This document shows positions 17,891 to 55,577 of a DNA stretch of 64,000 bases, in pieces (the first letter of the stretch is position 1; the number at the start of each line of letters is the position of its first letter). The notes beneath the pieces were generated by a model, which worked only from the letters and a program-made list of their open reading frames with translations, did no database searches and was not told where the DNA came from. The position numbers and the translations under genes are program-made. The stretch is from Acidobacteriota bacterium (lineage in GTDB: Bacteria > Acidobacteriota > Thermoanaerobaculia > Thermoanaerobaculales > Sulfomarinibacteraceae), in the NCBI GenBank assembly GCA_013152925.1, contig JAADFK010000085.1:1448-65447 (forward strand). The letters are read 5' to 3'.

Positions 17891-19305
17891 ATGCTACGTA
17901 CTGGATCAAGGCTGCCTACTTTATCCTCTTGCATCCTGGCTCTCGTCCTGGTGTTGGTCCCCTTTTCCGGCCAAGCGCAGGGAAGCAACGGCCAGCTCAT
18001 CAACCGCCTTCCGAGCGATCCCCTGGTGGCCGGGTACTGTAACGGTGACACCCCGGCGCAGGATTACGACAATCTCCTCGACCTCCTCGACCTCCTCGAC
18101 CTCCTCGACCTCCTCGACCTCCTCGACCTCCTCGAACTCCTCGACCTCGTCGGGCTAGTGGCCGGAGACGACCCCCAGGCCGCCGAGCAGATCCACCAGG
18201 TGATCCGCCAGATCGACGAGGCCCTCGGCCTTTCCCTGCGGAACGACATTCTGGCGTCGCTGGGCTCCGAGCTGGGCGTTTGGACATCCGTTCCCTGGAC
18301 CGGCTGGCCGGCGCCCTGAACAAGCCCGGCGGGTCCCCGGACGAGGTATTCGCAGAGCTCGATTTCTGTCTCCTCGCAAGGGTCACGGCTCCCGCGAAGC
18401 TCGACGCCGCCCTCCGGAAGGTCGCCCGGAAGAACGGAGCCACTGTGAAGGACGACGGCACCACGGTCCATCTCCTGTGGAAGGGGGCCGGCGCCAGCGA
18501 CGATCTGGGGCTCAGTTACTCGATCCACCGTGGGGTCCTGGCGCTCTCCCCCGCCAACACGACCGAAATCCCCGGCGGCCGGGTACAGGCCTTCGGACAC
18601 CGCATCACCGACGGGAAGGATTTCCGCACGGTGTTCAGCCACCTTGACCCCAATCCCTCGCACTGGCTCTACCTCAACCTGCCCAGGCTCCGGCAGCTCC
18701 TCCTCAGCTCCAGCGTCATCGCACGTGGGCTTTCCAGCGAGCCCGAGACTCGCAGCCTCTATGAGCGGTATGCCACGCCATCTCAGATCCCCACTGGCCT
18801 GGGCGTGACGGTCGTCGAGGTTGACCACGGCGTTCGTCAGACCACCTACGGTCCCAAGCTCTTCTCCTCGCTCGGCATGGGTAAGATCTACCCCCTGATT
18901 CTCGGCGCCATCGCCATCCCCAACTTGCTCAACGCGACCAACCGGGGCTGGCAGAATCGGACCATGATGGACATCCGGACCATCGGTATCGCCATCGAGG
19001 AGTACAACGTGGACTACGGCAGCTACCCGTCCACCGGAGGAGCATGGGTGAACGCGGCCGAGCTCGCGCCAAAGCTCTCCTCCACGTACCTCAAGAACCT
19101 CCCCCGAACCGACGCCTGGGGACACCCCTTCCGCGTCTGGAGCGACGTCCAGTCCTACATCATCGTCAGCCCCGCCGACAACGGCACGATCGACCGCGAC
19201 TGGCTCGGCCAATCCGCTCCGGAGCCGTCCACCAAGTTTGCAGCCGACATCGTCTTCAAGGACGGCACATTCCTCCAGTGGCCCGAGAGCTTGCTGACGG
19301 ACTGA
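17891..19305 (+). pseudogene. Secreted protein with (LLD)n repeat and C-terminal GspG-like module, split by a frameshift near 18278-18282
   Basis: Fragment 1 is 17891..18319 (signal peptide MLRTGSRLPTLSSCILALVLVLVPFSGQAQG, then the LLD repeat). Fragment 2 is 18280..19305 in the -1 frame. The sense continues across the junction (...ILASLGSELGV / LDIRSLDRLAGAL...). This could be a real frameshift or an assembly error. Confidence 0.55.
18074..18145 (+). repeat. 9-bp tandem repeat CTCCTCGAC x8 (6 perfect copies) encoding (LLD)n
   Basis: Read directly. Units run from 18074, with one variant (CTCCTCGAA at 18128-18136). In frame within the CDS (DNLLDLLDLLDLLDLLDLLDLLELLDL). Confidence 0.95.
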
Positions 19306-19878: not shown

Positions 19879-21201
19879 TCACGGTTTGGGCCAATGGGCG
19901 ATCCACGGTGGAGGGGGGGGCCACCTGCCCTCTGCCATGGCCCGGCGTTCCTCACCCACGCAGTGGGCAACTCGCAAGGCACCGTGGCGTACCAGATCGC
20001 GTTGGACTTGCCTCACGGTTTGTGCCGCCAGCTGGCGGCGGCCCGCCAGATATCGGGCCCGCGCCGCGAGCATGAGATCGATCGGATCCGAACACAGGCC
20101 CAGCAGGTGCTCGGCCAGACGCTCCCCCATCTCCGGAGCACCTTGGACCGTGATCAGCGCACGGAGCAGATCAGCGACCTGTCCGCTCTCCTCCAACCGA
20201 TCGACTCCCCGGTACGTCACACCCTTGATCAAGAGCATGACCGCCTCTCTGCACCCGTTCATCCGTGCAAGTCGAAGTAGCTTTCTTCGAGATCCCCAGC
20301 CCTGAGCATTCTCGAGAAGAAAACGAGCCATCCGATCCGCATCGGTCGAACGAGCCTCACGCAATGCCCGGCGCAACGCCCCACCAACTTCCAGGTGATG
20401 ATGTTGGCTCGCAAACACGAGCCCGACAAGCCCGGGGCCTGCCACTTCCGCTGGATCTTCCGGCAGATCGAGCCTGGTCCATCCACTTTTCCGGCCGCCG
20501 TCCGCAGCCTCGTCATAGAGCATCGCAAACGCCTCGAGCCGTGCCGACATGACGAGATCGCGGATCCCCTTGGAGAGCTTCGCCAGGCCCTCGTTCTCCG
20601 CCTCGGCCACGGCTTCCCCGTAGAGCCCGCGCCTCGCAAGCCGGCGCACGCACTTCTCTACCTCCTCCCGGCTGTGCTCGGTCTGCGCACGATAGCCGGC
20701 AAACCATCGGTCGAACGTGTCCCCACGGAGGATCTTCTCGATGTGCTCCCCCATGGACCGCGGACCCCCATAGCCAATGATCCGGTCGATCTCCCGATCA
20801 GATGCGTCTTCAATGACGATTGTGGGGACGAAAGATATCTTGAAGCGTCTGACCTCGGGCCCATCTTCACCCAAGGGAACATCGAGTCGAACACGGACGA
20901 AGGGCTTCAACGCGTCCCGCAGCGTCTGACTGGTTTCCATGTCGGCTTCCAGCCGATGACAGACACCTCACCAGTCCCCCGTGAACAGCACGAGCAGTTT
21001 CTTGTTCTCCCGCTTCGCGACCTTCAATCCCTGCTGCAGGTCTCCATCGATCCAGCGCAGCTCGTGCAGCCGATGCCACAGTAGTCCGGCCCCGCGCGCC
21101 GTGCCCACAGCCAGTGCCAACCCGAGGAGAACGCCGGACCAGCGCTTCCAGCTGAAACGTCGGCTTCGCCCCGCCTGTCCCCACTCAGTTATCCGACCCA
21201 T
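19879..21201 (-). CDS. Membrane-anchored thioredoxin-fold protein with in-frame UGA (candidate selenocysteine, UxxC) and a helical C-terminal domain
   Basis: ORFs 20968..21255 and 19879..20940 share one frame and are separated only by TGA 20968-20970. Read-through gives ...KKLLVLFTGDW-U-GVCHRLEADMETSQTLRDALKPFVRVRLDV..., a thioredoxin WCxxC context. Start ATG 21201 gives a TM anchor (WSGVLLGLALAVG). Confidence 0.6.
20924..20970 (-). other. UGA plus SECIS-like stem-loop
   Basis: The mRNA reads UGA-GGUGUCUGUCAUCGGC[UGGAA]GCCGACAUGG...CAGAC. The inner stem is UCGGC/GCCGA, extended by CA/UG with a 2-nt bulge. The outer stem is GUCUG/CAGAC. The apical loop begins 16 nt after the UGA and has G at its second position. 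Confidence 0.45.
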
Positions 21202-21700
21202 GCCGCTCCTCCGTAAACAGCGATCGAATCGGGATCGGGCCCGTTGGTGTCCCATCCAGCCGAACGCCGCCGTCGAACTGTTCCCGCGCCGGATCGTAGC
21301 CCTGCGTGAACACGACGGTTCCCAGGTACTGCGTGATGATCGTGCTCGGGATCATGTGGGCGGTCATGACGTTTCCAAAAACCTCATTGACATGATCGAT
21401 CAGCCCGGACTGACCCGGGTCTGCGAGGGAGATGTACACCCGGCGGGACCCGTCGGCGTACTTGAGAATCGCCCTTTCCAGCTCCCTGCAGAAGGAGCAC
21501 CATTCTGCCGAGATCACGAGAATCGAGGGCCTTCGCGATCTGCCGACCTCGTCGATGGTTCGTGTCGCCTCTTTTTGCGTCCGGATGTAGGTAACCCTGG
21601 CCTGCTGCCTTCCCCTGCCGCAACCCGGAGACGCTGCCAGAACACCGGCCGCCACGATCCTAGCGAGAAGGGCGACGGGATGAAACAACCCGTTTCTCAT
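21185..21700 (-). CDS. Thioredoxin-like lipoprotein (CxxC)
   Basis: ATG 21700 gives a lipobox (VLAASPGC). Thioredoxin motif ILVISAEWCSFCRELE. The 3' end overlaps the next gene start by 17 nt. Confidence 0.7.
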   Translation of the reverse strand: MRNGLFHPVALLARIVAAGVLAASPGCGRGRQQARVTYIRTQKEATRTIDEVGRSRRPSILVISAEWCSFCRELERAILKYADGSRRVYISLADPGQSGLIDHVNEVFGNVMTAHMIPSTIITQYLGTVVFTQGYDPAREQFDGGVRLDGTPTGPIPIRSLFTEERHGSDN

Positions 21701-21763: not shown

Positions 21764-22212
21764 CTACCTCGGGAACATGGCGGGAAGGCAAGGGATCGGC
21801 ACCTCCGCGGCACAGGGCCCGATTCCCGGAACAGGTCCTCTCGTCTCATACCTGGTGTCCGTCACACGGGATACCTTCGGCGTTTCGACGCGCATTCCGG
21901 CCAGCCAGCCGCCCTCGTCGTCGAGGAGCTGTACGAGATTGAAGGACTCTGCTCCCTCCCCGGTGTTGTCCCGAGCGAAGGCACCGGAATTGTGAGGCGT
22001 AAGACAGCCCCCTCGGTGTTCAAGAAGACCACCTCCTGATCCCCGGCGACCCCAAGCGCGGCTCTGCTGGCCTGCCAGAGCGCCGCCTTGAGCTCGGCTC
22101 TGCCGGCCCGTGAAGAGAGGAACGGCCAGTACAACGTTCCCGGCACGGCACAACGACCTCCCGGCCGCAGGACGTTGGGAGGCTCCGGGCCGAGGGCAGC
22201 GTCACTCGCCAA
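21764..22212 (-). pseudogene. Possible frameshifted small SnoaL/DUF4440-like gene
   Basis: Two overlapping minus-strand ORFs (21862..22212 and 21764..22153) read sensibly if joined at a C5/G5 run (22008-22012): ...AELKAALWQASRAALGVAGDQEVVFLNTEG / ...NSGAFARDNTGEGAESFNLVQLLDDEGGWLAGMRVE. Family resemblance is by pattern only. Confidence 0.25.
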
Positions 22213-23188
22213 GATCCGGGCCTCCCCACTTCCTGCCCATCTTGAACCTCCGGAAGACCTCGTGGGCCGCGTCCCAGGGATCCCGGTGCTGCCGGCAGAT
22301 GGTGTCGAGAGCCGTGACGAGGTGCTCGTTGCCGAAGTGGCTGACCACCATCTCCACCTCGCCCGGATCCACCTCCCGGAACCGGCCCTGGAGGAACTCC
22401 CGCATGATCCTGGCGCCGGGGCTCGAGGGGTTGTCCCGGGAGCACATCGACCTGAAGGATGTGACGATTTCCTTCGTCAGCCACGCCCCGTCGTGCCCTC
22501 TCCGGCTGTACACGCGACCGGCCAGGTGCGCTCCCAGCACCACGGCCGTGCTCTCCTCCAGGACCTGGCTCTCGATGCCGTTCCCGTAGCGAGAGAGCCC
22601 CGCCTGATAGAAGAGCGCGTGCACACACTCGTGACCGGCCACGTAGAGGAGCTCGGGCTCCGGCCAGCCGACCGTGGAGTTGAAGGAGACGACCTGGACC
22701 TCCGTCTCGTACGAGCCGCCGACGTAGGGGGGCAGCGGCACCACTCTCACCGAGGACACCCGGATGCCGTGGCCTACGATCGCCAGCAGATCGTGAACGT
22801 CCCGTTCCGCCCGCCGCCGGATGGCCGCGATGCGATCCGCCTCCCGCCGGGCCTCCAGCTGCGCCCGCCCGAAGTGGACCAGGCCAACCGTCACAAGGAG
22901 GGCCGCCACCACGACCCACCAACGTTTCAGGAACCACAACATCGCCCCCAGCCTGGTCTCCCACCACGTCCACCACCTGCGCAGGATGTCGCCGATCCAT
23001 GGATGAGCCACCACGTCTTCCGCCCGTAACGATTTCCGTTTCGGGAAGATAACGTCGCTCGGCCGCGCCGCCTCCACGCTGCGCCGCGCCGAACTTAGCC
23101 GCACGGCGCCCAGACCCTCCGCCGGGTTGTGATCATGCCCGAACTGGCCGTCGCGTCCCGGAGGATCGGTCATCCACCTCTCTCCCAT
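22202..23188 (-). CDS. Membrane-anchored HExxH protein (putative metallopeptidase)
   Basis: ORF 22202..23524. The start was moved to ATG 23188 (or 23173) to clear the upstream gene. TM helix WWVVVAALLVTVGLVHF. HExxH in LLYVAGHECVHALF. Confidence 0.6.
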   Translation of the reverse strand: MGERWMTDPPGRDGQFGHDHNPAEGLGAVRLSSARRSVEAARPSDVIFPKRKSLRAEDVVAHPWIGDILRRWWTWWETRLGAMLWFLKRWWVVVAALLVTVGLVHFGRAQLEARREADRIAAIRRRAERDVHDLLAIVGHGIRVSSVRVVPLPPYVGGSYETEVQVVSFNSTVGWPEPELLYVAGHECVHALFYQAGLSRYGNGIESQVLEESTAVVLGAHLAGRVYSRRGHDGAWLTKEIVTSFRSMCSRDNPSSPGARIMREFLQGRFREVDPGEVEMVVSHFGNEHLVTALDTICRQHRDPWDAAHEVFRRFKMGRKWGGPDLGE

Positions 23189-23318
23189 CGCACGGGACGA
23201 GACCGGACCTCGAGCGTCCAGGCTGCCCGAGCAACAGGAAGCCTCGGCCCGCCCGTTCCCTTGCCGCCTAAAATCCTCGCGCCCATCGCCCCAGGAGCAG
23301 TTCTCCATCCCGCGCTTA

Positions 23319-26111
23319 TCATTTGAAAGGGCGGGTGACCTGTAGCCCTTGAGGCCACTGAAGGAAACTCCCATTCTTGAAGACGATGTCGGAGGCGAAG
23401 TTGGTGGACGATTTCGCAGTTGACTGACCAAGCCAATCGCGGTCGATCGTTCCGTCCTTGCCGGGGCTGACGATGAGGTAGGATTCGCCGTCGCTCCAGA
23501 TGCGGAGGGGGTGTCCCCAAGCATCGGTCTGGGGACACTTCTTCACGTAGGCGGGAGAAAGCACGGGCGCGAGTGCAGCAGCATCGACCCAAGAACCGCC
23601 AGTGTACGGGTACCGATCGTAGTCCACTTGGTACATCAAAATCGCTGTTGCCAGAGTCCTCATTGTTGCCATGGTCCGAGTTTGCTTCTCATGGTCCACG
23701 GTAGTCTTGCGCATCGAGGTTGGACTACCAGCTTCACGTTCGGACAGATTCTGTTTCGATTCAACCCTGAGATCACATCCTTGAAGCACGAGGCGCCACC
23801 GCTCTCTCTTGGTGGGGCAACATAGTCCGTCGGCTGGATAGTGAACCGTTATATTGGCCAGGATCTCTTCATTCCCAATCCTCAGGGAATCCACGCGCGC
23901 ACGATCTTCGATAAACAGATTGCCACAGGAGACCGGCCGTCCATCCTTGTCCACGAAAACCACGATCGAAACCCATCCAGCCGTACCCCAGGTTTGTTCG
24001 ACAACAGCTATTGCCGCATCATCAATTCCGTCGTTGTTGAGATCGCCTCGTGCAACAGAATCTCGAAGAAACCAGACCCCTGCAAGCGGTTCGCGATCGT
24101 CAATTCCTCCTCGGCCATCAGATTCCCATCGCCCGCCTTTGAGCTGGTATTCTCCTAACTTGACGTTCCAAAGCGCTTCCGTCGGAAATGGTCGCCTTGT
24201 CTTGGGTCCGTGGTGTGTCTTCCCCCCAACGAGGCGGATCTCGGCCTCGTCCTTGTGGATGGTTCCAGGGTGGCCGATGGCGCCGTAGCGGGCGCCGGCC
24301 TCAAGCACGAAGACCGCCGAGCCGTCCGCTGCGCCGCAACTCTTGCACTTTTCGAGCCAGGTCCGGGCGTTGGTTGCCCGGTCTGGACTGATGATGTAGA
24401 TCCTATCAGGGCGGAGCTTGTGAAGCTGCTCCGCGCTCAGGAGCTCCCGGGTTTCGAGCACATCGAAACGGTTCGCTGCGCTGAGGACGGTGAAGGTCAG
24501 CGGCTCGGAGTACCGGTTGACATCGATGGGCCGGCCGTTCCGTTTCACCTTGAGGAAGTCGAAGATGACGACGGGCAGAATCATCGGTTTTCCAGGCCCG
24601 CTGAGCAGCTCCTCGCCGTCGAAGCCCTCCGATGGCCGGAGGGCTGGCGAGAGCGGCAGGACCATGACCGGATCGAAGAGGCGGTGGGCCTTGCGCTGAA
24701 GGTAGGTTGTGAGCGCTGTCAACGCCGCCATGCCGGGGTTCGGTCCTCCCGAAACGGCGCCCTTGATCAGCACGTCCCAGCCGAATCCCTCGAGAAGATC
24801 CTTCAAGCCTGTCGCTCCCGCTGCCTTGGCATCCTCCCAAGAGGTATCGCCATCACCACCGACGAGCGGCTTCTTGATGGAAAACACGGTGCCACCATTC
24901 CCAACCATGACAAAGCAGGGGCTGTCCGGATCCGGAGGGTTCGGCACACCGCAGGGCCAGGTGAGGAATCGACCGTTGGCGTAGATGATGTCCGTATCCC
25001 ACGATTCCGATGGCCCCAGGTATCTCAACGATGTCTGCATCTCACCATCCGCCCCGGCGGAATAGATTCCGTAGGTGTTCCCGTCCCCTTTCAAGAGGAT
25101 GGGGTGCCCCCAGCCATCCTTCGCGGAGAGGCCGGTGGCACCCACGCTGCGCAACCCGTCGAGGATGGCCGCCACGGGCGTGGCGGGCTGGCCCTCAGAG
25201 GCGTCAGTCGAAACCGGGAAGCTTCCGTGGACCTGCCGGTACTTCTCCAGGGCGAGCCCCAGCGCCTTCATCCGATCCAACGTCGTCCGCGCCGCCTCCT
25301 CCTGAAAGAGGCGACCGTACTCGCCGGCGCCCGTGTTCGGCTCCACATCCTGACCCGCCGGGGGAGCCCCCAGCCTCGATCCCCCCTCCGGCGGCGACCC
25401 GCGCTCTTGCTGGACCTGTTCGGGGGATGTCTCACTCTTGGCCGGGGGAGGCGTTGCGGGGTTGCGCTGGATCAGCTGGTCGATCATGGCCTGGGGAGTC
25501 CCGGCCTGCCAGCGTGGGGGGGCCTGGAGGCCGGCGGCACGGGCCACCTCCATGAGGACGGTGACGCAGTCGCTCGTGGTCAGGCGGTAGGGGTGGGACT
25601 CCCACCGGCGGCGGACGGCCTCCGTGCGGCGGAAGGCGTCCCGGCTGACGCGGACCTCGAGGATGTCGCCGATCTCGTGTCGCGTCAGGAGATCATCCCG
25701 GAGCTTGCCCGGCACCGGGCCCACGACCTGCCGGACCACGCCGAGCGTATCCCCCTTGACCGGGTAGAAACCGAAGGCCTCGGCCGAGCTGAAACAGCGA
25801 TCCGGATCCTCCGAGGCCCACACCACGAAGGCGTGCCCCGGCAACTCGCTCCACCCGGGGCTCTTCCTCCAGCAGAAGAGCAGGGAATAGCTACCCTGCC
25901 CGGAGCTGTCCCGCCGGGCGATGACCCGGTCGATCTCGAGCGCCGGCGCCAATGGGGCCACGAAGCAGCACAACACCAGGAGTCCTGCAATCGCCGACCG
26001 CTTCCCTATTGGACACCCCTTCGACGACACTGTGCCATCACGTGACGGTCGCATCACCATTCGATACATGTGTCGATCCTCCATCTTGTCGTTCCGTTGG
26101 TTGCGAGCCAC
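23319..26111 (-). CDS. Large secreted multidomain protein: N-terminal His...Cys (permuted papain-like?) domain, two GspG-like modules, FG-GAP-like segment
   Basis: 930-aa ORF with signal-like KRSAIAGLLVLCCFVAPLAPALE. GHAFVVW ... TSDCVTVL lies at 25512-25934. GspG-like modules are at 24954-25304 (DGWGHPILL...SAGADG) and 23322-23681 (DAWGHPLRIW...SPGKDG). Also DLNNDGIDDAAIAV. The exact start is uncertain (M1-M20). Confidence 0.7.
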   Translation of the reverse strand: MARNQRNDKMEDRHMYRMVMRPSRDGTVSSKGCPIGKRSAIAGLLVLCCFVAPLAPALEIDRVIARRDSSGQGSYSLLFCWRKSPGWSELPGHAFVVWASEDPDRCFSSAEAFGFYPVKGDTLGVVRQVVGPVPGKLRDDLLTRHEIGDILEVRVSRDAFRRTEAVRRRWESHPYRLTTSDCVTVLMEVARAAGLQAPPRWQAGTPQAMIDQLIQRNPATPPPAKSETSPEQVQQERGSPPEGGSRLGAPPAGQDVEPNTGAGEYGRLFQEEAARTTLDRMKALGLALEKYRQVHGSFPVSTDASEGQPATPVAAILDGLRSVGATGLSAKDGWGHPILLKGDGNTYGIYSAGADGEMQTSLRYLGPSESWDTDIIYANGRFLTWPCGVPNPPDPDSPCFVMVGNGGTVFSIKKPLVGGDGDTSWEDAKAAGATGLKDLLEGFGWDVLIKGAVSGGPNPGMAALTALTTYLQRKAHRLFDPVMVLPLSPALRPSEGFDGEELLSGPGKPMILPVVIFDFLKVKRNGRPIDVNRYSEPLTFTVLSAANRFDVLETRELLSAEQLHKLRPDRIYIISPDRATNARTWLEKCKSCGAADGSAVFVLEAGARYGAIGHPGTIHKDEAEIRLVGGKTHHGPKTRRPFPTEALWNVKLGEYQLKGGRWESDGRGGIDDREPLAGVWFLRDSVARGDLNNDGIDDAAIAVVEQTWGTAGWVSIVVFVDKDGRPVSCGNLFIEDRARVDSLRIGNEEILANITVHYPADGLCCPTKRERWRLVLQGCDLRVESKQNLSEREAGSPTSMRKTTVDHEKQTRTMATMRTLATAILMYQVDYDRYPYTGGSWVDAAALAPVLSPAYVKKCPQTDAWGHPLRIWSDGESYLIVSPGKDGTIDRDWLGQSTAKSSTNFASDIVFKNGSFLQWPQGLQVTRPFK

Positions 26112-46428: not shown

Positions 46429-49400
46429 TTATGGAGCGATCGTACCGGTCTGAGCCGGGCTGAAACCCACAGCACCCTGACCGTCGCCGGATGCGGCGAC
46501 AACCGAAATATTGTGTCCGGAGTTGGTCAACGTATGGAAACCTGCACCAAGAATCAATGTCCAGCTGTTCGTTCCCGTGGCGGGATTGTTTGACGGAATC
46601 CCAGCCCAAGTTCCGGAAATCTGGTCCCAGAACAGACCGGCGTCCGTGTCTTCGATCGTCAGTGTGACACCACTGATCGTGTCATCGTCGACCACCGTGC
46701 CCGCGATGGTCGTACCATCGTTGAGAACAAAGGGAGAGGGCCCGTCGATCGTTACCACGGGCGCCGGATTGTTTACGGTCCAGGTGAAAGATGTGGAGAC
46801 GGTGCCACCGTTCCCGTCGTTCGCCGTGACCGTGACCGTGTAGGGACTCGATGCGGAAGCGTCGGCTGCAATCGTTCCCCCAATCACCCCCGTTATACCG
46901 CCGATCGTCAGGCCTCCCGGAAGACCACTCGCCGAATAGCTCAGCGCATCACCATCCGGATCGGTGAAGCTCGTGGAAACGTTGAGGCTCATGGCATCAC
47001 CGTCGTTGTTGGTCTGATCCGAGATGCCCGTGGTCGTCGGTGGATCGTTGACTGCATTGACGGTTATTGTCACCGTCACCGTCGCCGAGTCCGCATGCCC
47101 GTCGTTGGCGTGATAGGTGAAGGAATCCGTCCCGTTGTAGTTCGCCGCCGGCGTGTAGCTGAAGCTGCCGTCACTGTTCAGGGTCAACGTTCCGTGCGAG
47201 ACAGTCGCGTCCAACACTGCTGTCAGCGCGTCACCGTCCACGTCCGTGTCGTTGGTCAACACGCCAGGAGCCGCAACGGTCAACTGGGTGTCTTCGTTCG
47301 TCGAATAGCTGTCCGCCGCCGCCACCGGTGGGTCGTTAACCGCATTGACGGTTATCGTCACCGTCACCGTCGCCGAGTCCGCATGTCCATCGTTGGCGTG
47401 ATAGGTGAAAGAATCTGTCCCGTTGTAGTTCGCCGCCGGCGTGAAGGTGAAGCTGCCGTCGCTGTTCAGGGTCAGCGTCCCGTGCGAGACAGTCGTGTCC
47501 AGCACCGCCGTCAGCGTGACGCCATCCACGTCGGTGTCATTTTGAAGCACCCCGGGTGCCACTACCGTCAGCTGCGTGTCTTCGTTCGTCGAGTAACTGT
47601 CCGGCGCCACCTGGGGCGGGATGTTGGCAATGTTCCCGCTGCTCGTCGCGGACGTGGTGGCGCCGAGGTCATCCGTAGTCTCAACCTTCAGAGTTACGTT
47701 TGAACCACCAAGGTGATCGTGGAAGCCACTCGGCAGCGTGTAGCTCCAGGTGCCAGCAGTCCAGTCGACCACGGTGATCGGAACCCAGGTTGCCGAGGAC
47801 TGCCAGGCAGAACCGTTCCAGTATTTCCCAGAATCCGCGGCCTCGATCTGGATCTGCAAACTGTAGTCGCTGGCATCGCCGCAGGAGTTGTACTCGCTAT
47901 CGCTCATGGTGCCGGTCACGGCCTGGTCGTCGTCCATGTCAGGGTAGGAGGCGTTGTCGAACGCCACAGCGGGATCGTCGTTGGCCAGCGTCGCCGTCAG
48001 GGTGGGCGTGTTGCAGGAATGGATCTCTCCCTGGCACGCCGTGCAGGTTCCCTCGGCGTTGTCCACCGCGAGCACCGAGATGCGTACGTCGTGGTTCACG
48101 TGGCCCGCCAGGAGCTCGTGCGGGATCGGCCAGCTCCAGGTGTGAGCCGCATCGTCATGGCTCACCGTGAACCACGTCTCAGTCGTCACCCATTGGTTGC
48201 TCGCTCCGTCGAAATACTCATTCCCCGATTGAATGAGTAGCCGCACCTCGGCCACCTGGCCGTCGTCATCGCTGAAGGTGCCGTGAATACCACCGGTCTC
48301 GCACTCGTGGAGGGCGGCGTCCCCATTGCCGAGGACGAAGGTCTCGATGGTCGGCAGCCCCTCGGTCACCACCGTGGCCGGATCGCTGACGGTATTGGGG
48401 TCTTCGCCCGGTTTGGGCGCCACGTTCTCCTGTGGATTGTGGGCATAGACGAGGATCTGGTGGTCAGACGTCACGGGCATGACCGGATTCCCGTTGGCAT
48501 CGTTCACTGGCAGGGCGAGGGCGTTGGCCCAATCTCCGGATGCCACACCCCAACCACTGGCGATGCGGTAGACGGGCCCAGTTGTCTGGTCCCTCCAGAT
48601 TCGGTTGCCGCTGCTGTCCACCGCGAGCCAGTAGTCGCCTGCCGATATGGCTCCATTGCCATCGGCATCCAGCAGGAAAGCGTATTGCAGCGTACTCCGT
48701 GCCACGGCTGGATCCGCCGAGTTTCTTTGCAGGAAGACATTCAATCCGGTGGCGCCGCAACCGACATTGCCGCTGTTGGGATTGTCCGCTTCACCCTGCT
48801 GGAAGCCGTCTGGAGAAAGGGGCCGGACAAAGACCGCCCAATCTGGCCTCAGGACGGCCGAGCTGTCATGCGCCGCTTGGTCCAGCAAACGACCGCCGAG
48901 GGCGGCGAGCTCCTGATCTCCTCCCAAAGTGACGGAACTGACCGTCACCGGCTGGAGCAGCACATCCGGCGAGCCCGATAGGGCCGCGCTGGGAGCAGCC
49001 GTCGGATTGCCCGAGGCACCGCCGCCCTGGAGTTGGTACCAACTTTCACCGCTGGCAGGGTTGTACTCCCGTGCCGTGGACCAGATATCGAACCCCTCTC
49101 CCGCCACGGGAAGATCTCCCCCGATTCCGGCGCCTTCACGGCTGACGAAGCCACCGGTGATCTCCGGAACGAGGTAGTCAACCGGGATCGGATTGCTGGC
49201 ATTGGAAGATTCGCTCGTGTTTCCACCACCGTCGGTCGCCCGAACGGTCCAGACCACCAAGAACCCTTCGGCGTTGGAGCGATTTGCCATGTCGAGGGTA
49301 AGGTCGCCCCAATTGTTGTTACCGTTCCAGGTGTTCTCTTCCTTGGCAGGATCGAGCTGAGGCTGACCCGTCGCCGAGAACCACGCCTGAGAGGAGATCC

Positions 49401-52400
49401 ACTGCTGGGAAGTGGGATTCCAATATCTGCCATCGTCCACACGTTGAATCATGACGTCGAAAGCATCCACGTGGCCGATACATTCGTGTGCGTCGAAATC
49501 GAGTTGATGCGTGGCATCCGTCAGAAAACCATTTGTCAACAACCACTGGAATACCCCTATGTTGGCCGGGCTTTCATCCTGCCACGCGGCCTGACTGCTC
49601 GGAGCCGTTCCCACGGTTTGTACCGGGTCCTCCGACGTGCCACTGTTGGGGCTGACCGTTGCCGTATGAGTTACGGTTATCGGAACGTCATCGTTGACCG
49701 GCGGAACGATCACTTGGAAGACCGCCATACCATCGCTGTCGGTGATAACAGGCATGCTCGTAAGGATGGTCTCCTTCGCGTAGTCTTGTGGGTCGTTTGG
49801 ATCGAGGAACTTGTTGAGCTCGACGCGGGCGTTGACCACCGGCTGGTTGTTCTCGCCCATGAGCGTGACAGTCACCTGGACGGTTTCTCCGGTATCCACG
49901 ATGCCGTCGCCATTGCAATCGCTGCCGTCCGTCGTACCGGCGACCGGGCTCGAATTGCCCATGACAACTGTTGACGCAGCCTCGTCGAGGCGCCACGATG
50001 TCTCATCGTTCACCGTGGTTTCCGAACGGTCACCCACTGTGTTCTGGTCGCTCTGGTTGTACAGGACCGCGCTCCACTTGCTCAGGCCAATTGTCTTGGT
50101 ATGGACGGTGAAGGTTGCCTCACCATTCTCATTCGTGCTGGCCTGGATGGGTGTGCTGTCCGAAGGCGTGTCTTCGAGCCGGTCGGAGGACAGCTCCACC
50201 GTAAAGCCAGGCCAAACGGGGGAGTCATCCGCTTCCTTCAACGTCACCGTCATGGTTTCGTTGCGGCCAACGACGCTATCTTCCGCGACCGCCGACTCGA
50301 TCTTCCGCACCTGCCATTCACATTGAACCGACGTGTCCAGATCAATGCTGGACAATACGCCCCCATCCGCATTGACCGTTGACCTCTTTGCATACTCGAC
50401 GCTGTAGGAGGAAATACCAGGAGCATGGGAGGTTACTTCGAAGGAAGCTCTTCCGTCGGCATCCGTCACCTGCCACTGCGGGTAGTCCAAACCGTCACCC
50501 GCACCCTCGAAACGGAAATAATACGGCCTCGAGCTCTTCACGGTAACCGAATACCCCGGCAGGGGCCGGCCGTTGCTATCCCTTAACGTGATATCCACCC
50601 TCTCCCAAGCACCCACTTCCGAAGATTCTTCTGCAACTGAAATCGCGGAGTGCTGGGAGTCCGGAAGTGCCGTCCCGTAGCCCTCGGGCTGTACCACAGG
50701 GATGAAGAGCGAGTCATTTGTCACGTTGTCGGTCCTGGTCACATATGCCGTCAACTCACCATCCTGAGCCGCCACTTCAAGCAGGCAGCCCTGCAGAAGG
50801 CTCATGCCGTTGCTATCCACCTGCTCATTGAGAGGCACCAACGGGGTTGAGAAGAAGGAAGACAAGCAGGGAGCCGTGTCCTCCTCGCAGTTCAAGCGTC
50901 CCAGCTCATTCTGGCGCAGGGCATGGGGCGCCAGATCGACCGTTACCGCCATCGATATCACCTGGCTACCATCAGCACCTTTGAGCTGGAGAGCCGCACC
51001 CTCATGATCCATGAGCCGGAGCACAGCCGTGGCCTTCTTGTCGCCGACGTTTGCCAGTCCGAAGCTCTCTCGAATGGCGTTCGACCTGAGGTCCAACGCG
51101 AAGATCACGCCGGCATCACTACCGGCGGTCAGAACCTGGGGCGTGGCGGCATACCCGGGCACCCTCTGTCCATATGTGCATGGGACCGTTCCATCCTCAC
51201 CCTCGCAGGTGGCCAGCGTGTAAGTTCGGGAGGTCACCAACACATCGTCCTTCCCCGGACCATCGATTTCCACGAGCAGAAGCCCCTTACCGGCGCTGAA
51301 ATTCGGATCAAGGTAACGGCAGACGTCGTGAATGGAAAGGGTTTGCCCGGCCAGCAAGGACACTGGGGCCATGGGCGGGTTGGGAATCTCATGCTCCCCA
51401 TCAGTGGGGAAGAAACGGAAGCCGTACGTTACGTCCTTGTTTCCTGTATTGGCAAGCGTGAGATCAGTCACCCAGAAACTGTTGTTCTTCCCAGGAAGCC
51501 GGGCAATCACGGGTACGATGACCCTGTCCCCTCCCGAGCCCAGAAGCCCGGTTGTGCGTCCCGGAAGCGAAATGGGGTCGTCGGAGTCGTTATCGACCTG
51601 GCTGACCATCACGGAGTATTTGACGCCATCGGGCCCCACGGGCTCCACATTGAGGCGTGCTGGATGCACCGAGTTTCCGAGGCTGACGTAGAGCGGCGTT
51701 CGAGGGGGTACTGTGACCTCCTGATTCCAGATCTCGTCGCCTGTGTCGTTCAACGCTACAATCTTGAAGGATGCTTCCTGGTCCCCGAAAACCGTCAAAT
51801 GAAGGTTGACCCGGGTCGAGATTGCGTGATCACCGTCGTTTCCTGGAATCACCAGAGCCACACGCAAAGGCGTTGGAATGACAGCAACCCAATTCAGAGG
51901 TTGCGCGACGACGAACTGGCCCCGGCTGGCCACGATAGGGTTGTCCGAATTTGGGTCAGAAACCTCGGCAACCGAATACACTTCCCCAGCCATCATCGGG
52001 AACTTGGCGGGCCAGGGATCTTGCACGGTCGTACCAGTTGTCGTCACGGGTTTGACGTAGATCCAACCTTTCGAGGCGGTCACGATCCCGAAGAGCTGGT
52101 CCAGGATGTCGTCATACTGGCGCAGAGAGTTTGGACGGCCTTTGGCCTCGAGGCGAAGACGACGAACGATCGCTGTTTCGTGATCTTGCTCCGGATGGAG
52201 AAAAACATTTGAAGCCTGATTGTTTGGGTTCCCAGGCACGCCGGCCTTGGTGATGACGTAACCCACCTCGTACGTCCGGGCCTTGTTCTCCTGGTTGAAG
52301 AACCACGCCGCAGTTTTCCACACCACGCCACCAACACCGGGCTGTGCCGCGACCACCGGCAATACTGTCATCGGCTCGGAACCGTCTACCGAAGGTGGAG

Positions 52401-55053
52401 CTTGCGTCATATTTACAGCCAATGGAATCTTGGCCGTGACCGGTTCCGAGAACAGATCGTCGGTGGTCATCCGGAGGTAGTACTGGTGTGAGGCCAGCAC
52501 GTTGGCATTCCCAGCAATATCAAACTGCAGGGTTGCCTCATTTTCATCAACGGAAGACGTTGCATCTTCCACAACCACCTTGGCATCCTTCAGAACGACA
52601 CTATCCGGAGTTTCGTTTCCCGGCATGGGTACGAGGTCGAGCTTCGCAGTGAAACCGGGACCACCACGGTTCGTCCTCAGTTTGAGGGTAAATTGGTCTC
52701 CCTGTCGACCGTAGACGGTGTACGCCTTTAATAGTCCGTTCCGGTCCAAGGGAGCCACCAACACGCGCTCCACACACCGCAACCTCATGTTCCCGCCATC
52801 CCCGGTGCCAAGGAGCCGAATCACGACTCGATTCTCGTCGGAGTGCAAGGTTGGAAGCGTGTACGAAATGTCGGTTTGGAAAGAGCTCCGGCTCTCAAGG
52901 TCAATGGTCTTGCCGGCCAGTTCACGAGCCCAACTTGGTTCAACGGAGGCAGTACAGAAATCGGTCTTAGCCGAAGCTTTGACCAAGAGCACCTGTAAGG
53001 TCACTTCAGCAGGGAGTACACCCGCATTGAAAAGCTGGACGCCCTTGTGCCGATACTCCTTGTTGTTTTTCTGGAAGAAAGGATCTGGCCAGGGGAAGGT
53101 TTCCTCTGTTGCATTGAAGCCGACGTCTGCCACCGCTTCGATCTGGAGCATACGATCACGCTCAGAGAAAAGGCGACATTTCTGTCGAACGTTACCGGTC
53201 ATCTTGTAGAGGTCGCCCCCTTTGGCCTGAGCATCGATGAGGTCGCCATCCTCTACCTGCTGCCAGGGAACAAGCAGGACCTTGATCGTACCCACCCCAT
53301 GAACCGAGGAAGGAAGCATCACAGTCAGGGGTATGTTCGTGCCGAGTTGGTTGCTGTCGATCTTGTAAACGCCACGATACTTCTGTTTGGTCTGATCGAC
53401 GTTGGAGGAAAGCACCTCGAGCCGCGCCTCGCGACTCGTGTCGGGGCCCTTGCTGGCCAGTTCTCCCGAGAGGTCCACATCGTCGTCGGGATCGGCGTAT
53501 GTAACCACCGCCGCCACAGGATCGGGACAGTTCCCCAGTTCCGTCGCATTGAGGGTAACCGTGATGGGCGTGCCTGCTATCTCATGGGCCGGGGCCGGCT
53601 TCTCAGGCCCCTCTGCCGTGGGGTCGTACCACGGCGCACTGTCAGGCCCCACAACGGCGAGCTCGTAGCCGGGGATCGCCGGAGAGCCGTCCAGTTCCAA
53701 AACGTTGTTCTCGAGATGGATGTCATACGTAGTGTGACCGTCCTGCACCTGCGGCGTGAAGCCATCGATTCTGATCCAATGACCTTTCCATTGAGTGCTG
53801 TCACCGGCCCAACGCACGCCGTACCATGCCGGATCGTAAACATAGAGGAAGAGCCGCCCGTCCCGCTCTGGTGCCGGGCCACCGAGATACCGGTTCTCCA
53901 GTCGGATTCGCCCCTCACGCTCGATGCGGGCCACCATGTTGTACAGATTGTTCCTGCTGAGTGGAGCATTGCCCCAATATCCCCACACCCCGTAGACCGG
54001 ATCTCCGAGCTCGCCCACTTCGTTGGGGAAATTTGTGCTTTCGTCGAGAGAGGTCATTGGATTCCCCGGCATCGTACTGAGGGGACTGGAGTAAAGTCGA
54101 AAATAACCAGAACCCGTTTCGTCTCCATGAACCGCCAATGGATCCTTGAGCTTCAAGGTGTCTACCTCAGAAGCAACATCGGCTGGCCCGGCGGCGGCAT
54201 CCTCCACATACCAGATATCGAAGGCCACTTGGTTGACACTGCACCGAAGGTCTTTGGACGGACCGCCGGCCGTATCATCTTCCGCCAGCCTCACCTCGTT
54301 GACCCACGCGTCTGTAAGGTCAGCGAGCTCACCCTGGCATTGGTTCTTTGCATCCCACCTGAGAGAAGGAACGGTAGTCGCCGGAGGCGGATTCAGCTGC
54401 CGGCTATCCGTTTTGTCGGCGTCAATGAGGTAGCCATCGCTTAGATCAGTCTCGTTCACATCCTCGAGATCTCCTGGCCCGGGTCCCATGATTCGCAGGT
54501 CAACGGGGTTTTTCTCGTAACCAGTACAAATGGATGCCAGATCTCCTATCAACTTCTCTTGATCAGCCGTTTGCACCGGGTTGTAGTTTTCGTCTACGAC
54601 CACCAATGAAAGGACAAGGTTGCCACGACCGAGCCCCTGCAGCAGGGAAAGCTGAGCGGAATCGACCTCGAGCGAATGTTCTCCAGGTTCCAACTCAGTG
54701 ACATCAGTGATCTTGAGCTCGTTCGCCTCGATAACATCGTCGGAAGAGCCCAGCAAGACCACATGCTCGCCATCATTCAACACGAAATCGCTGCCAACAC
54801 GGTACTTTAATAGAAAAACCTTCGACCCATCCGGGAGACCTTGAGGGCTTTTCGCCCACGGCCTCACGAAGAGAATCTCGAGATTGCTCTCGTCCATTAC
54901 GGAACGGCCTGATGTTCCCTCATCCACTGACGCCAGCGCCTTGGAACCGGCCTGCCTTCCCGAAAGAATCATCTGTGCCCACGATGGGGGCGCGCCAAGG
55001 GCTAGGACGATGAGCCCGAACACCAATACCACTAGACGGCTGTGAGCTTTCAT
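46429..55053 (-). CDS. Giant secreted cadherin-like / Ig-like repeat protein (2874 aa), putative adhesin
   Basis: ORF 46429..55296. Start ATG 55053 follows AAGGAGGAA. Signal peptide MKAHSRLVVLVFGLIVLALGAPPSWAQ. Three invasin-type Ig-like segments (...TDADGRASFEVTS, ...NENGEATFTVHT, ...DSDGMAVFQV). Two 96-aa cadherin-like/VCBS-type repeats (DSYSTNEDTQLTV..GVLxNDTDVDG...NAVNDPP). One dystroglycan-type cadherin-like module (FTDPDGDALSYSASGLPGGLT). Confidence 0.88.
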   Translation of the reverse strand: MKAHSRLVVLVFGLIVLALGAPPSWAQMILSGRQAGSKALASVDEGTSGRSVMDESNLEILFVRPWAKSPQGLPDGSKVFLLKYRVGSDFVLNDGEHVVLLGSSDDVIEANELKITDVTELEPGEHSLEVDSAQLSLLQGLGRGNLVLSLVVVDENYNPVQTADQEKLIGDLASICTGYEKNPVDLRIMGPGPGDLEDVNETDLSDGYLIDADKTDSRQLNPPPATTVPSLRWDAKNQCQGELADLTDAWVNEVRLAEDDTAGGPSKDLRCSVNQVAFDIWYVEDAAAGPADVASEVDTLKLKDPLAVHGDETGSGYFRLYSSPLSTMPGNPMTSLDESTNFPNEVGELGDPVYGVWGYWGNAPLSRNNLYNMVARIEREGRIRLENRYLGGPAPERDGRLFLYVYDPAWYGVRWAGDSTQWKGHWIRIDGFTPQVQDGHTTYDIHLENNVLELDGSPAIPGYELAVVGPDSAPWYDPTAEGPEKPAPAHEIAGTPITVTLNATELGNCPDPVAAVVTYADPDDDVDLSGELASKGPDTSREARLEVLSSNVDQTKQKYRGVYKIDSNQLGTNIPLTVMLPSSVHGVGTIKVLLVPWQQVEDGDLIDAQAKGGDLYKMTGNVRQKCRLFSERDRMLQIEAVADVGFNATEETFPWPDPFFQKNNKEYRHKGVQLFNAGVLPAEVTLQVLLVKASAKTDFCTASVEPSWARELAGKTIDLESRSSFQTDISYTLPTLHSDENRVVIRLLGTGDGGNMRLRCVERVLVAPLDRNGLLKAYTVYGRQGDQFTLKLRTNRGGPGFTAKLDLVPMPGNETPDSVVLKDAKVVVEDATSSVDENEATLQFDIAGNANVLASHQYYLRMTTDDLFSEPVTAKIPLAVNMTQAPPSVDGSEPMTVLPVVAAQPGVGGVVWKTAAWFFNQENKARTYEVGYVITKAGVPGNPNNQASNVFLHPEQDHETAIVRRLRLEAKGRPNSLRQYDDILDQLFGIVTASKGWIYVKPVTTTGTTVQDPWPAKFPMMAGEVYSVAEVSDPNSDNPIVASRGQFVVAQPLNWVAVIPTPLRVALVIPGNDGDHAISTRVNLHLTVFGDQEASFKIVALNDTGDEIWNQEVTVPPRTPLYVSLGNSVHPARLNVEPVGPDGVKYSVMVSQVDNDSDDPISLPGRTTGLLGSGGDRVIVPVIARLPGKNNSFWVTDLTLANTGNKDVTYGFRFFPTDGEHEIPNPPMAPVSLLAGQTLSIHDVCRYLDPNFSAGKGLLLVEIDGPGKDDVLVTSRTYTLATCEGEDGTVPCTYGQRVPGYAATPQVLTAGSDAGVIFALDLRSNAIRESFGLANVGDKKATAVLRLMDHEGAALQLKGADGSQVISMAVTVDLAPHALRQNELGRLNCEEDTAPCLSSFFSTPLVPLNEQVDSNGMSLLQGCLLEVAAQDGELTAYVTRTDNVTNDSLFIPVVQPEGYGTALPDSQHSAISVAEESSEVGAWERVDITLRDSNGRPLPGYSVTVKSSRPYYFRFEGAGDGLDYPQWQVTDADGRASFEVTSHAPGISSYSVEYAKRSTVNADGGVLSSIDLDTSVQCEWQVRKIESAVAEDSVVGRNETMTVTLKEADDSPVWPGFTVELSSDRLEDTPSDSTPIQASTNENGEATFTVHTKTIGLSKWSAVLYNQSDQNTVGDRSETTVNDETSWRLDEAASTVVMGNSSPVAGTTDGSDCNGDGIVDTGETVQVTVTLMGENNQPVVNARVELNKFLDPNDPQDYAKETILTSMPVITDSDGMAVFQVIVPPVNDDVPITVTHTATVSPNSGTSEDPVQTVGTAPSSQAAWQDESPANIGVFQWLLTNGFLTDATHQLDFDAHECIGHVDAFDVMIQRVDDGRYWNPTSQQWISSQAWFSATGQPQLDPAKEENTWNGNNNWGDLTLDMANRSNAEGFLVVWTVRATDGGGNTSESSNASNPIPVDYLVPEITGGFVSREGAGIGGDLPVAGEGFDIWSTAREYNPASGESWYQLQGGGASGNPTAAPSAALSGSPDVLLQPVTVSSVTLGGDQELAALGGRLLDQAAHDSSAVLRPDWAVFVRPLSPDGFQQGEADNPNSGNVGCGATGLNVFLQRNSADPAVARSTLQYAFLLDADGNGAISAGDYWLAVDSSGNRIWRDQTTGPVYRIASGWGVASGDWANALALPVNDANGNPVMPVTSDHQILVYAHNPQENVAPKPGEDPNTVSDPATVVTEGLPTIETFVLGNGDAALHECETGGIHGTFSDDDGQVAEVRLLIQSGNEYFDGASNQWVTTETWFTVSHDDAAHTWSWPIPHELLAGHVNHDVRISVLAVDNAEGTCTACQGEIHSCNTPTLTATLANDDPAVAFDNASYPDMDDDQAVTGTMSDSEYNSCGDASDYSLQIQIEAADSGKYWNGSAWQSSATWVPITVVDWTAGTWSYTLPSGFHDHLGGSNVTLKVETTDDLGATTSATSSGNIANIPPQVAPDSYSTNEDTQLTVVAPGVLQNDTDVDGVTLTAVLDTTVSHGTLTLNSDGSFTFTPAANYNGTDSFTYHANDGHADSATVTVTITVNAVNDPPVAAADSYSTNEDTQLTVAAPGVLTNDTDVDGDALTAVLDATVSHGTLTLNSDGSFSYTPAANYNGTDSFTYHANDGHADSATVTVTITVNAVNDPPTTTGISDQTNNDGDAMSLNVSTSFTDPDGDALSYSASGLPGGLTIGGITGVIGGTIAADASASSPYTVTVTANDGNGGTVSTSFTWTVNNPAPVVTIDGPSPFVLNDGTTIAGTVVDDDTISGVTLTIEDTDAGLFWDQISGTWAGIPSNNPATGTNSWTLILGAGFHTLTNSGHNISVVAASGDGQGAVGFSPAQTGTIAP
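47038..47613 (-). repeat. Two tandem 288-bp near-identical coding repeats (96-aa cadherin-like modules)
   Basis: Repeat 1 is 47038-47325 and repeat 2 is 47326-47613 by codon arithmetic. Protein copies differ at roughly 10 of 96 residues. The DNA is visibly near-identical over long runs. Confidence 0.9.
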
Positions 55054-55096
55054 CTCGGTTTTCCTCCTTCGATGACAATCGGACGCGTCATACTCA

Positions 55097-55112
55097 AGCA
55101 AGGAGGGTGCCA
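55097..55112 (-). promoter_or_regulatory. Sigma-54 promoter of the giant-gene operon
   Basis: The minus strand reads TGGCAC-CCTCC-TTGCT (exact TGGCAC-N5-TTGC), 44-59 nt upstream of ATG 55053. An AT-rich tract lies immediately upstream (55113-55180). Confidence 0.7.
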
Positions 55113-55255
55113 ATAGACAAAACAGTGAGATTTCGTATGTTATAGCTGGGAAGTTGGTAGGTAGCCGACGAATTCTTGCTGCCCCGCTCATCATCCTATG
55201 AGTCAAACCCGAACTCTCGTCGCTCCTCAATTCAACCAACATGTCGCCGCAATGG

Positions 55256-55269
55256 GGTTCCCGGGAACC
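55256..55269. promoter_or_regulatory. Perfect 14-bp palindrome GGTTCCCGGGAACC, candidate enhancer (UAS)
   Basis: Located about 145-157 bp upstream of the -24 element. The 10-mer GGTTCCCGGG also occurs about 130-145 bp upstream of the other sigma-54 promoter (7441-7450). Confidence 0.3.
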
Positions 55270-55577
55270 TACTCCGCCCGTCGCTGCCGTTACCAACTGT
55301 GGCTGATCGTGGCGACGCCACTGACGATTCCCTCATATCCTGTCAGACCGGCTGTTATCTCCCGGGCCACTTGGCTCCGTGATCCAATTACGCTCCCCGA
55401 TCAACACCGAAAGCCATGACCCGGAGGCTTCGATTCCTTCCAGCCCTCCATGAGAGAAATGACACCAGCCGTAACTCTTCTGTTGGGTATCCATCCCGTG
55501 AGGCAATTCGGTTCCGAGGAAGAAAAATCCCTGTTACATCAACCAGGGTCAATGATGTTTCTTGGCAATCACTCGCG

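Follow-up and report, generated by a model that had tools for sequence, protein, structure and literature searches.

Two annotated open reading frames separated by an in-frame TGA

We analyzed a 64,000-nucleotide (nt) stretch of DNA from an Acidobacteriota bacterium (assembly GCA_013152925.1, contig JAADFK010000085.1, positions 1,448 to 65,447; hereafter, the window), which carries a candidate selenoprotein gene on its minus strand. At this locus, the open reading frames (ORFs) 20971..21201 and 19879..20940 lie in the same frame and are split only by TGA 20970..20968, an arrangement reported in the original prediction for this DNA and confirmed here on the minus strand. The upstream ORF starts at ATG 21201, with the sequence GGAGGAG 4 nt 5' of the ATG, and its start overlaps the 3' end of the preceding gene by 17 nt. 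Beyond the internal TGA, the frame remains open through to TGA 19881-19879.

Conceptual read-through yields a protein of 440 residues (...KKLLVLFTGDW-U-GVCHRLEADMETS...), in which the UGA takes the first position of a CxxC motif (LLVLFTGDW-U78-GVC81-HRLEADMETS). This placement, likewise part of the original prediction, is borne out by the read-through sequence FTGDW-U-GVC-HRLEAD, which gives a single Pfam thioredoxin (Trx) domain across the TGA. The features of the locus are as follows.

19879..21201, minus strand: complete predicted selenoprotein gene, 440 codons including selenocysteine (Sec) 78, plus TGA stop 19879-19881
20968..20970, minus strand: in-frame UGA, predicted Sec at residue 78, at the first, nucleophilic Cys position of CxxC (U78-G-V-C81)
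20942..20956, minus strand: putative upper stem-loop of a bacterial selenocysteine insertion sequence (bSECIS), UCGGC[UGGAA]GCCGA; fits bSECIS geometry, with GG at loop positions 2-3
21076..21141, minus strand: N-terminal hydrophobic segment, residues 21-42, WSGVLLGLALAVGTARGAGLLW, 22 residues, preceded by the basic RSRRFSWKR
20809..21054, minus strand: DsbD-gamma-like thioredoxin domain, residues 50-131, with U78xxC81 and a cis-Pro-type VPT (P126)
19882..20709, minus strand: C-terminal all-alpha, TPR-like helical repeat domain, about residues 165-440 (~275 residues), as modeled with AlphaFold2 and compared with Foldseek

GenBank annotates the locus as two hypothetical proteins, GXP47_05140 (77 amino acids) and GXP47_05135 (353 amino acids), of an "Acidobacteria bacterium" metagenome-assembled genome (MAG). 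Homologs bearing Cys at the same codon are called as single proteins of 400 to 430 amino acids. TGA is the usual stop in the window, ending 18 of the 21 genes with Pfam support; the standard code therefore applies, and any decoding of TGA 20968-20970 must be site-specific. A genome-wide reassignment of UGA to Trp or Gly is ruled out by the same count. A scan of the GC-rich window returned many other split ORFs joined by TGA, none of them with a redox-motif context like WUxxC.

Homologs carry TGA or a Cys codon at the same position

When the downstream ORF was used as the query in an exhaustive HMMER search, 18 relatives were returned. A word-indexed protein search with the full-length sequence gave the self match only, probably because low-complexity words swamped the candidates. 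Scans of species-representative genomes and of metagenomes were run with a four-sequence alignment that begins after the Sec position. Among the relatives, P0005, P0006, P0008, P0012, P0016, and P0020 have N termini exactly at the start of the window downstream ORF, while P0010, P0017, P0011, and P0014 are 60 to 90 residues longer and carry WCxWC. The DNA of the short relatives contains a small upstream ORF in every case, which ends in TGA at the codon aligned with the first Cys. Examples are listed below.

L001: ADW-TGA-GVCHRLDAD, 50% identity to the window protein
L005: GAW-TGA-AACEQLDAA, 33% identity to the window protein
L008: GDW-TGA-GFCVELEKE, more distant than L001 and L005
L010: GDW-TGA-GFCGRLEAD, more distant than L001 and L005
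L013: GDW-TGA-GFCSWLEAD, more distant than L001 and L005
L015: SDG-TGA-HWCTVLDEK, more distant than L001 and L005

In total, 27 distinct forms with TGA and 27 distinct forms with TGC or TGT at the aligned codon were collected. The original prediction had proposed checking whether homologs end at this position or carry Cys there; they do not stop here, and Cys is aligned with the UGA in all 27 of the latter forms (e.g., P0017, DWCTWC; P0010, SWCVWC; and L020, EWCSWC). Where the aligned codon is a stop, it is always TGA and never TAA or TAG, at protein identities down to about 25%. Both flanks of the TGA are conserved as coding sequence in L001, L005, L008, L010, and L013 and in 21 further TGA forms, with no further stops or frameshifts. 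The MAGs that contain TGA forms are labeled as Acidobacteria, Eisenbacteria, Zixibacteria, Bacteroidota, Ignavibacteria, and Neomarinimicrobiota, amounting to at least six phyla, and one genome (GCA_053938765.1) holds two TGA-containing paralogs, L002 and L010.

On a rough neighbor-joining tree of 61 Trx-domain sequences (from L001 to L089, plus the window), parsimony requires a minimum of about 14 changes between Sec and Cys. The two forms are intermixed in most subclades, and the clade of the window protein (window, L001, L005, L010, and L013) is all Sec. Two of its members, L010 (264 residues) and L013 (162 residues), are short and have no helical domain, indicating that the Trx module also occurs alone as a selenoprotein. 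Avoidance of U directly after the UGA gave no signal (U in 0 of 27 Sec forms versus 2 of 28 Cys forms).

A hairpin downstream of the UGA covaries across the family

In the window, positions 20956-20952 pair with 20946-20942 to form a 5-bp stem that closes the loop UGGAA (20951-20947), and the loop lies 16 nt from the UGA. The original prediction had described this hairpin, and its stem, loop, and spacing are as given there. The G at loop position 2, which had been taken to fit bacterial SECIS geometry, does so by the published bSECIS criteria (PMC13188914, Fig. 2). An additional outer helix, GUCUG/CAGAC, is possible in the window as had been suggested, but it is not conserved in the closest homolog, L001. 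Folded by itself, the upper hairpin has a calculated energy of -7.2 kcal/mol, and the 60-nt context reaches -20.5 kcal/mol. Scanning the window against Rfam at gathering thresholds gave no match, which carries little information, since Rfam is not known to include a general bacterial SECIS model.

For the comparison across the family, the bSECIS criteria were coded as a loop of 3 to 9 nt with G in its first two positions, a stem of 4 bp or more, and a distance of 16 to 37 nt from the UGA (PMC13188914, Fig. 2). The published model also sets a minimum free energy (MFE) of at most -7.5 kcal/mol (PMC13188914, Fig. 2). All 27 TGA forms have a hairpin of this geometry, at a spacing of 16 to 23 nt. 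A hairpin with a dG of -4 kcal/mol or lower is present in 26/27 Sec forms versus 4/27 Cys forms (Fisher p = 3.4e-10). Upon synonymous resampling, the mean z score is -1.51 for Sec forms versus -0.18 for Cys forms (Mann-Whitney p = 2e-5), placing the excess folding in the Sec forms only.

The 17 sequences that share the window register form the main register, in which 88% of the cells are paired, versus 64% in shuffles and 22 to 50% when the partner is slid by 1 to 3 columns. Changes on both sides occur in five of the six stem pairs, and a compensatory series runs from CGGC/GCCG (RLEAD) to GCUC/GAGU (KALEES), GCAGC/GCUGC (EQLDAA), and CGAC/GUUG (RLDVD), with the loop kept as UGGAN. In other clades, the hairpin lies one or two codons later, for example, CUGGACG[AGAAGA]CGUUCAG in L015 and GAUAC[CGUGGU]GUAUC in L078. 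Conservation of the hairpin in homologs, which the original prediction had named as a point on which it could fail, was thus found in every TGA form, together with compensatory changes.

Architecture and predicted fold of the protein

With Cys placed at residue 78, the window protein matches Thioredoxin_7 (PF13899) at 46.7 bits (cutoff, 27; E value, 3.6e-12; residues 50-131), Thioredoxin_2 (PF13098) at 45.1 bits (cutoff, 27), and Thioredoxin at 27.5 bits, each as one domain across the TGA. The first Cys of the CxxC motif in the Trx fold is exposed and nucleophilic, and this is the position taken by Sec in the window protein. The family motif E137-I-D-R140-I-I-G143-Y, with E137, R140, and G143 invariant, and the nearly invariant P126 are all located in the downstream ORF. 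Since UxxC lies at the TGA junction but P126 in the downstream ORF, a single active site requires read-through. A profile search against the PDB ranked the C-terminal domains of DsbD best (E value, 3e-19).

An AlphaFold2 model of the Cys homolog P0017 (pLDDT, 87.5; pTM, 0.82) displays a Trx fold and, C-terminal to it, a TPR-like array of 14 helices; the strand-helix Trx fold itself is modeled at a pLDDT of >90. The downstream ORF of the window was modeled at a pLDDT of 86.6. Foldseek searches with the P0017 model returned YbbN/CnoX, DsbD-gamma, LbcA, and designed TPRs, and searches with the model of the window downstream ORF returned weak TPR/PPR-type matches. A C-terminal motif, P-x-(F/I)-x-x-W-P (P-x-F-E-x-W-P), is found in the family. 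The original prediction had noted a helical C-terminal domain of ~300 amino acids in an architecture that it could not recognize. The helical character is upheld, but the domain is recognizable as a TPR-like repeat, in a Trx-plus-TPR layout that resembles YbbN/CnoX.

The N terminus of the window protein is probably a signal anchor or signal peptide, judging from its basic and hydrophobic residues. Several relatives have lipoprotein-type signals (...MSLAC in L008, ...LGALAC in P0017, and ...LLAVSC in P0010). Both features suggest that the Trx domain probably lies outside the cytoplasm. As a separate observation, residues 11-20, G-R-S-R-R-F-S-W-K-R (window 21142-21170, minus strand), bear a loose likeness to a twin-arginine (Tat) signal. 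In relatives, too, RR is found close to the hydrophobic core, and other clades have ordinary lipoprotein signals.

Proposed decoding of the UGA and alternative explanations

The conserved UGA, the homologs with Cys aligned to it, and the covarying downstream hairpin support the central claim of the original prediction. We consider it very likely that 19879-21201 (minus strand) is one gene encoding a predicted selenoprotein of 440 residues, with Sec at the UGA. By analogy with the established bacterial Sec pathway, a ribosome arriving at UGA 20970-20968 would meet the hairpin UCGGC[UGGAA]GCCGA 11 nt past the UGA, which would recruit SelB.GTP.Sec-tRNASec, and Sec would be inserted instead of termination. 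The basic and hydrophobic N terminus would anchor or export the protein. Its DsbD-gamma-type thioredoxin domain would act through U78-G-V-C81, with Sec as the nucleophile, and the TPR-like domain of about 275 residues may hold a client or partner protein. Judging from homology, the window protein most likely acts in the cell envelope as a thiol-disulfide or selenosulfide oxidoreductase.

Several observations weigh against this interpretation. No selA, selB, selD, or tRNA-Sec was found in the 64-kb window or in 89 fetched loci, a sample of <0.4 Mb that is uninformative on whole genomes; the search combined ARAGORN (the window plus 47 loci), Pfam (about 30 proteins of the window), and tblastn with approximate Escherichia coli SelD and SelB sequences. 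In favor of the interpretation, Sec decoding is known in some members of the phylum Acidobacteria (PMC1794560, Table 2). The window hairpin taken by itself is also unremarkable. At -7.2 kcal/mol, its upper stem-loop falls just short of the -7.5 kcal/mol of the model unless flanking pairs count, and it is no better than chance when compared to dinucleotide shuffles (z = -0.11; 86-nt context). Resampling of synonymous codons with the gene's own usage and the peptide kept fixed left the native sequence with only a small advantage in stability (z = -0.79, p = 0.23). The hairpin arises almost automatically from the R-L-E-A-D codons (CGG CUG GAR GCC GAC) when the genome is GC rich, and its significance derives only from the comparison of homologs. 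Furthermore, the Cys forms L020, L038, and L065 retain a similar hairpin (e.g., AACGGC[UGGAU]GCCGUU, -8.1 kcal/mol), which implies that the structure is partly dictated by the encoded peptide. On the rough tree, these three are related to Sec forms, and their hairpins are either relics of a lost SECIS after a recent Sec-to-Cys reversion or codon by-products of the peptide. Finally, each of the five window-clade members has an AUG 27 nt past the UGA, and two of these have GGAGG before it: in L010 (3971-4003) and L013 (619-651), the sequence across the SECIS loop and 3' stem is GGAGGCCGACAUG, comprising the Shine-Dalgarno-like GGAGG, 5 nt, and the AUG. Internal initiation that gives an independent, signal-less downstream product is conceivable.

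The last point bears on a first alternative, in which TGA 20968-20970 is a real stop and the locus holds two genes, one for a membrane peptide of 77 residues and one, starting at ATG 20940, for a cytoplasmic protein of 353 residues. GenBank and IMG both annotate the locus in this way, and the conserved AUG, with its GGAGG and 5-nt spacer in L010 and L013, would serve such a second gene. However, the break would fall inside the Trx active site and sever strand 1 and UxxC from the cis-Pro and the remaining fold, while the Cys homologs are single proteins. The downstream product would also lack the export signal that is otherwise always present in the family, and other TGA clades have Thr or Val in place of the Met, with no alternative start. 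Two genes are very improbable here. Even less credit can be given to a Trx-like pseudogene with a nonsense mutation, or to an assembly error, as the source of the TGA. A lone in-frame stop is typical of a fresh nonsense mutation, and a decayed, frameshifted gene remnant is located about 0.6 kb upstream, but independent assemblies contain 27 distinct sequences with TGA at this codon, at identities as low as about 25% and including two paralogs in one genome. The TGA is never replaced by TAA or TAG, and the protein-level conservation of both flanks, uninterrupted by further stops or frameshifts, effectively refutes decay.

A different kind of alternative accepts the recoding but has Cys inserted at the UGA in place of Sec, by a tRNA-Sec-like tRNA-Cys (selC*) together with a SelB-like factor. 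Such a mechanism has been proposed for some anaerobic bacteria (PMC5389517). It predicts an identical hairpin and the same alignment of UGA with Cys, and unusual tRNA-Sec-like tRNAs (allo-tRNAs) have been reported in Acidobacteria. On the other hand, selC* was found in Firmicutes, Thermodesulfobacteria, Nitrospirae, and Proteobacteria and not in Acidobacteria (PMC5389517). Moreover, Cys insertion would offer no gain over a UGC codon, yet TGA is retained across many phyla, which leaves this option highly unlikely and Sec as the preferred reading of the UGA.

Neighboring genes and context of the locus

The gene that overlaps the start of the predicted selenoprotein gene is described in the following line.

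21185..21700, minus strand: upstream gene for a small probable lipoprotein with WCSFC, a remote Trx-fold relative, overlapping the selenoprotein gene by 17 nt

Its product gives a weak Pfam match to Thioredoxin_2 (18.7 bits versus a cutoff of 27). BLASTP detected no similarity between this product and the selenoprotein, whereas hhalign against the profile of the selenoprotein family gave 94% probability at 20% identity, with WCSFC aligned on WUGVC. The original prediction had treated this gene as the Cys twin in a Sec/Cys pair. Its WCSFC motif, remote Trx-fold relationship, and probable lipoprotein nature stand, but given the absence of BLASTP similarity, the pairing does not; the true Cys counterparts belong to the selenoprotein family and are found in other genomes (e.g., P0010, P0017, L019, and L020). 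In L005, the selenoprotein gene has a 68%-identical copy of the WCSFC gene at a distance of about 1.5 kb, past a NAGPA-domain gene. It is possible that the WCSFC protein is a redox partner of the selenoprotein, and the linkage of the two genes, found in one other locus only (L005), hints at a functional partnership. Gene neighborhoods vary among the relatives, so a pathway cannot be read from context.

The surroundings of the locus have further features of their own. About 0.6 kb upstream, at 21767-22140 (minus strand), there is a remnant of a NAGPA-domain (PF09992) gene, consisting of the C-terminal ~125 residues in two frames. It has 57 to 71% identity to the intact gene at L005 2197-3183 and is flanked on one side by the WCSFC gene and on the other by ORF 22202-23524. 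Two proteins with a GspG-like domain (PF08334, type II secretion), encoded at 18280-19305 (plus strand) and 23319-26111 (minus strand), share a 114-residue C terminus at 64% identity. This pair flanks the selenoprotein locus in inverted orientation, and the larger protein has a second, weaker copy of the module. From ~18000 to 58000, the GC content of the window is 0.56 to 0.64, versus 0.68 to 0.70 at either end, and at third codon positions it is about 0.70 instead of about 0.85. Besides the selenoprotein gene, this low-GC stretch encodes a cadherin/Big_9 protein of 2955 residues (46429-55296), a Ser/Thr kinase, and PP2C, FHA, VWA, and FG-GAP proteins. Either acquisition as an island or misjoining of the contig may account for it.

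Significance

On the sequence data presented here, the locus very probably encodes a previously unannotated selenoprotein of the familiar UxxC type with an unlisted domain architecture. The annotation would accordingly change from two "hypothetical proteins" to one redox enzyme, and the same error is probably present in many public entries. The inventory of UxxC selenoproteins would gain an exported Trx-plus-TPR architecture across six MAG phylum labels. In addition, the 27 Sec and 27 Cys forms are a handy natural data set for the origin of a SECIS within coding sequence and its decay after Sec-to-Cys reversion. The understanding of Sec decoding itself is unchanged by the find, which is of moderate specialist interest.

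More speculatively, the gene might belong to a widespread, unlisted family of exported selenoproteins with a DsbD-gamma-type Trx domain and a TPR-like domain that often switches between Sec and Cys and is "SECIS-ready." Under this idea, which we put forward with some reservation, the codons for ...(R/A)-L-(E/D)-(A/E)-(D/S)... past the active site would, in a GC-rich genome, give rise to a SECIS-like UGGAN hairpin almost as a matter of course. If true, the family would be a natural example of bacterial coding sequences that gain Sec easily.

Comparison with known selenoprotein and thioredoxin families

Trx-fold proteins with UxxC are the commonest kind of bacterial selenoprotein. The Trx-plus-TPR architecture is absent from a 2026 list of 119 selenoprotein families, and none of the 120 matches listed in the profile search has a selenoprotein name. 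Many entries of ~206 residues in this search (dozens, P0096-P0142) match only the Trx part after the UGA, followed by TPR repeats, and are named TPR repeat, TolA-binding, BamD-like, or "negative regulator of GroEL" proteins. As they cover only the part after the UGA, they are probably truncated calls of selenoproteins, from a clade with DW-U-SWC-KALEES.

No NCBIfam model was reached by the window protein, the nearest being TsoB, DsbD, and NF041199 at 25 to 28 bits versus cutoffs of 300 to 805. NF041199, the Trx7/PDZ (seleno)protein family, is also a Thioredoxin_7-type selenoprotein with a weak local match to the window protein. This match (24.9 bits versus a cutoff of 300) covers profile positions 2-60 of 390 and places the window protein outside the family, as does the lack of a PDZ match. 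In NF041199, Sec is second (CxxU; PMC13188914, Table 1) and accompanied by a PDZ domain, whereas the window protein has UxxC and a TPR-like domain.

A closer resemblance exists to the "Thiol:disulfide interchange protein" selenoprotein family of 2004, which is defined by PF13098 and UxxC with WP_011366075.1 as its representative (PMC13188914, Table 1). The window protein likewise combines a Trx fold, UxxC with Sec first, and a match to PF13098 above the cutoff, and in both cases Sec would be decoded via a hairpin within the coding sequence. It differs in that its best Pfam match is Thioredoxin_7 (PF13899) instead. Its TPR-like domain of ~275 residues and its membrane anchor are not mentioned in Table 1 of PMC13188914, and the family is compared here by its description only.

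The window protein resembles the "chaperedoxin" YbbN/CnoX in overall layout, as both have a Trx fold at the N terminus and a TPR-like helical domain after it. YbbN (3qou) is the top Foldseek match of P0017 in the PDB (E value, 7.9e-6), but the whole-chain superposition is poor (TM score, 0.21 to 0.30; root mean square deviation, about 22 Å); the types of domain agree, but they are arranged differently. CnoX is cytoplasmic, and the E. coli protein is not known to have CxxC; in contrast, the window family appears to be exported or anchored and retains the full (U/C)xxC.

The gamma domain of DsbD is the closest solved relative both by profile and by fold (TM score of about 0.65 to 0.70 over the domain), and the Cys homolog P0017 has 31 to 33% identity to it. 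They have the motif context DWC-x-x-C...(Y/L)PT in common, as well as a periplasmic location, which for the window protein is the probable one. However, DsbD-gamma is one domain of a Cys-based, three-domain membrane electron transporter, whereas the DsbD-gamma-like domain of the window protein would have its own anchor, a fused helical repeat domain, and Sec at the nucleophilic position.

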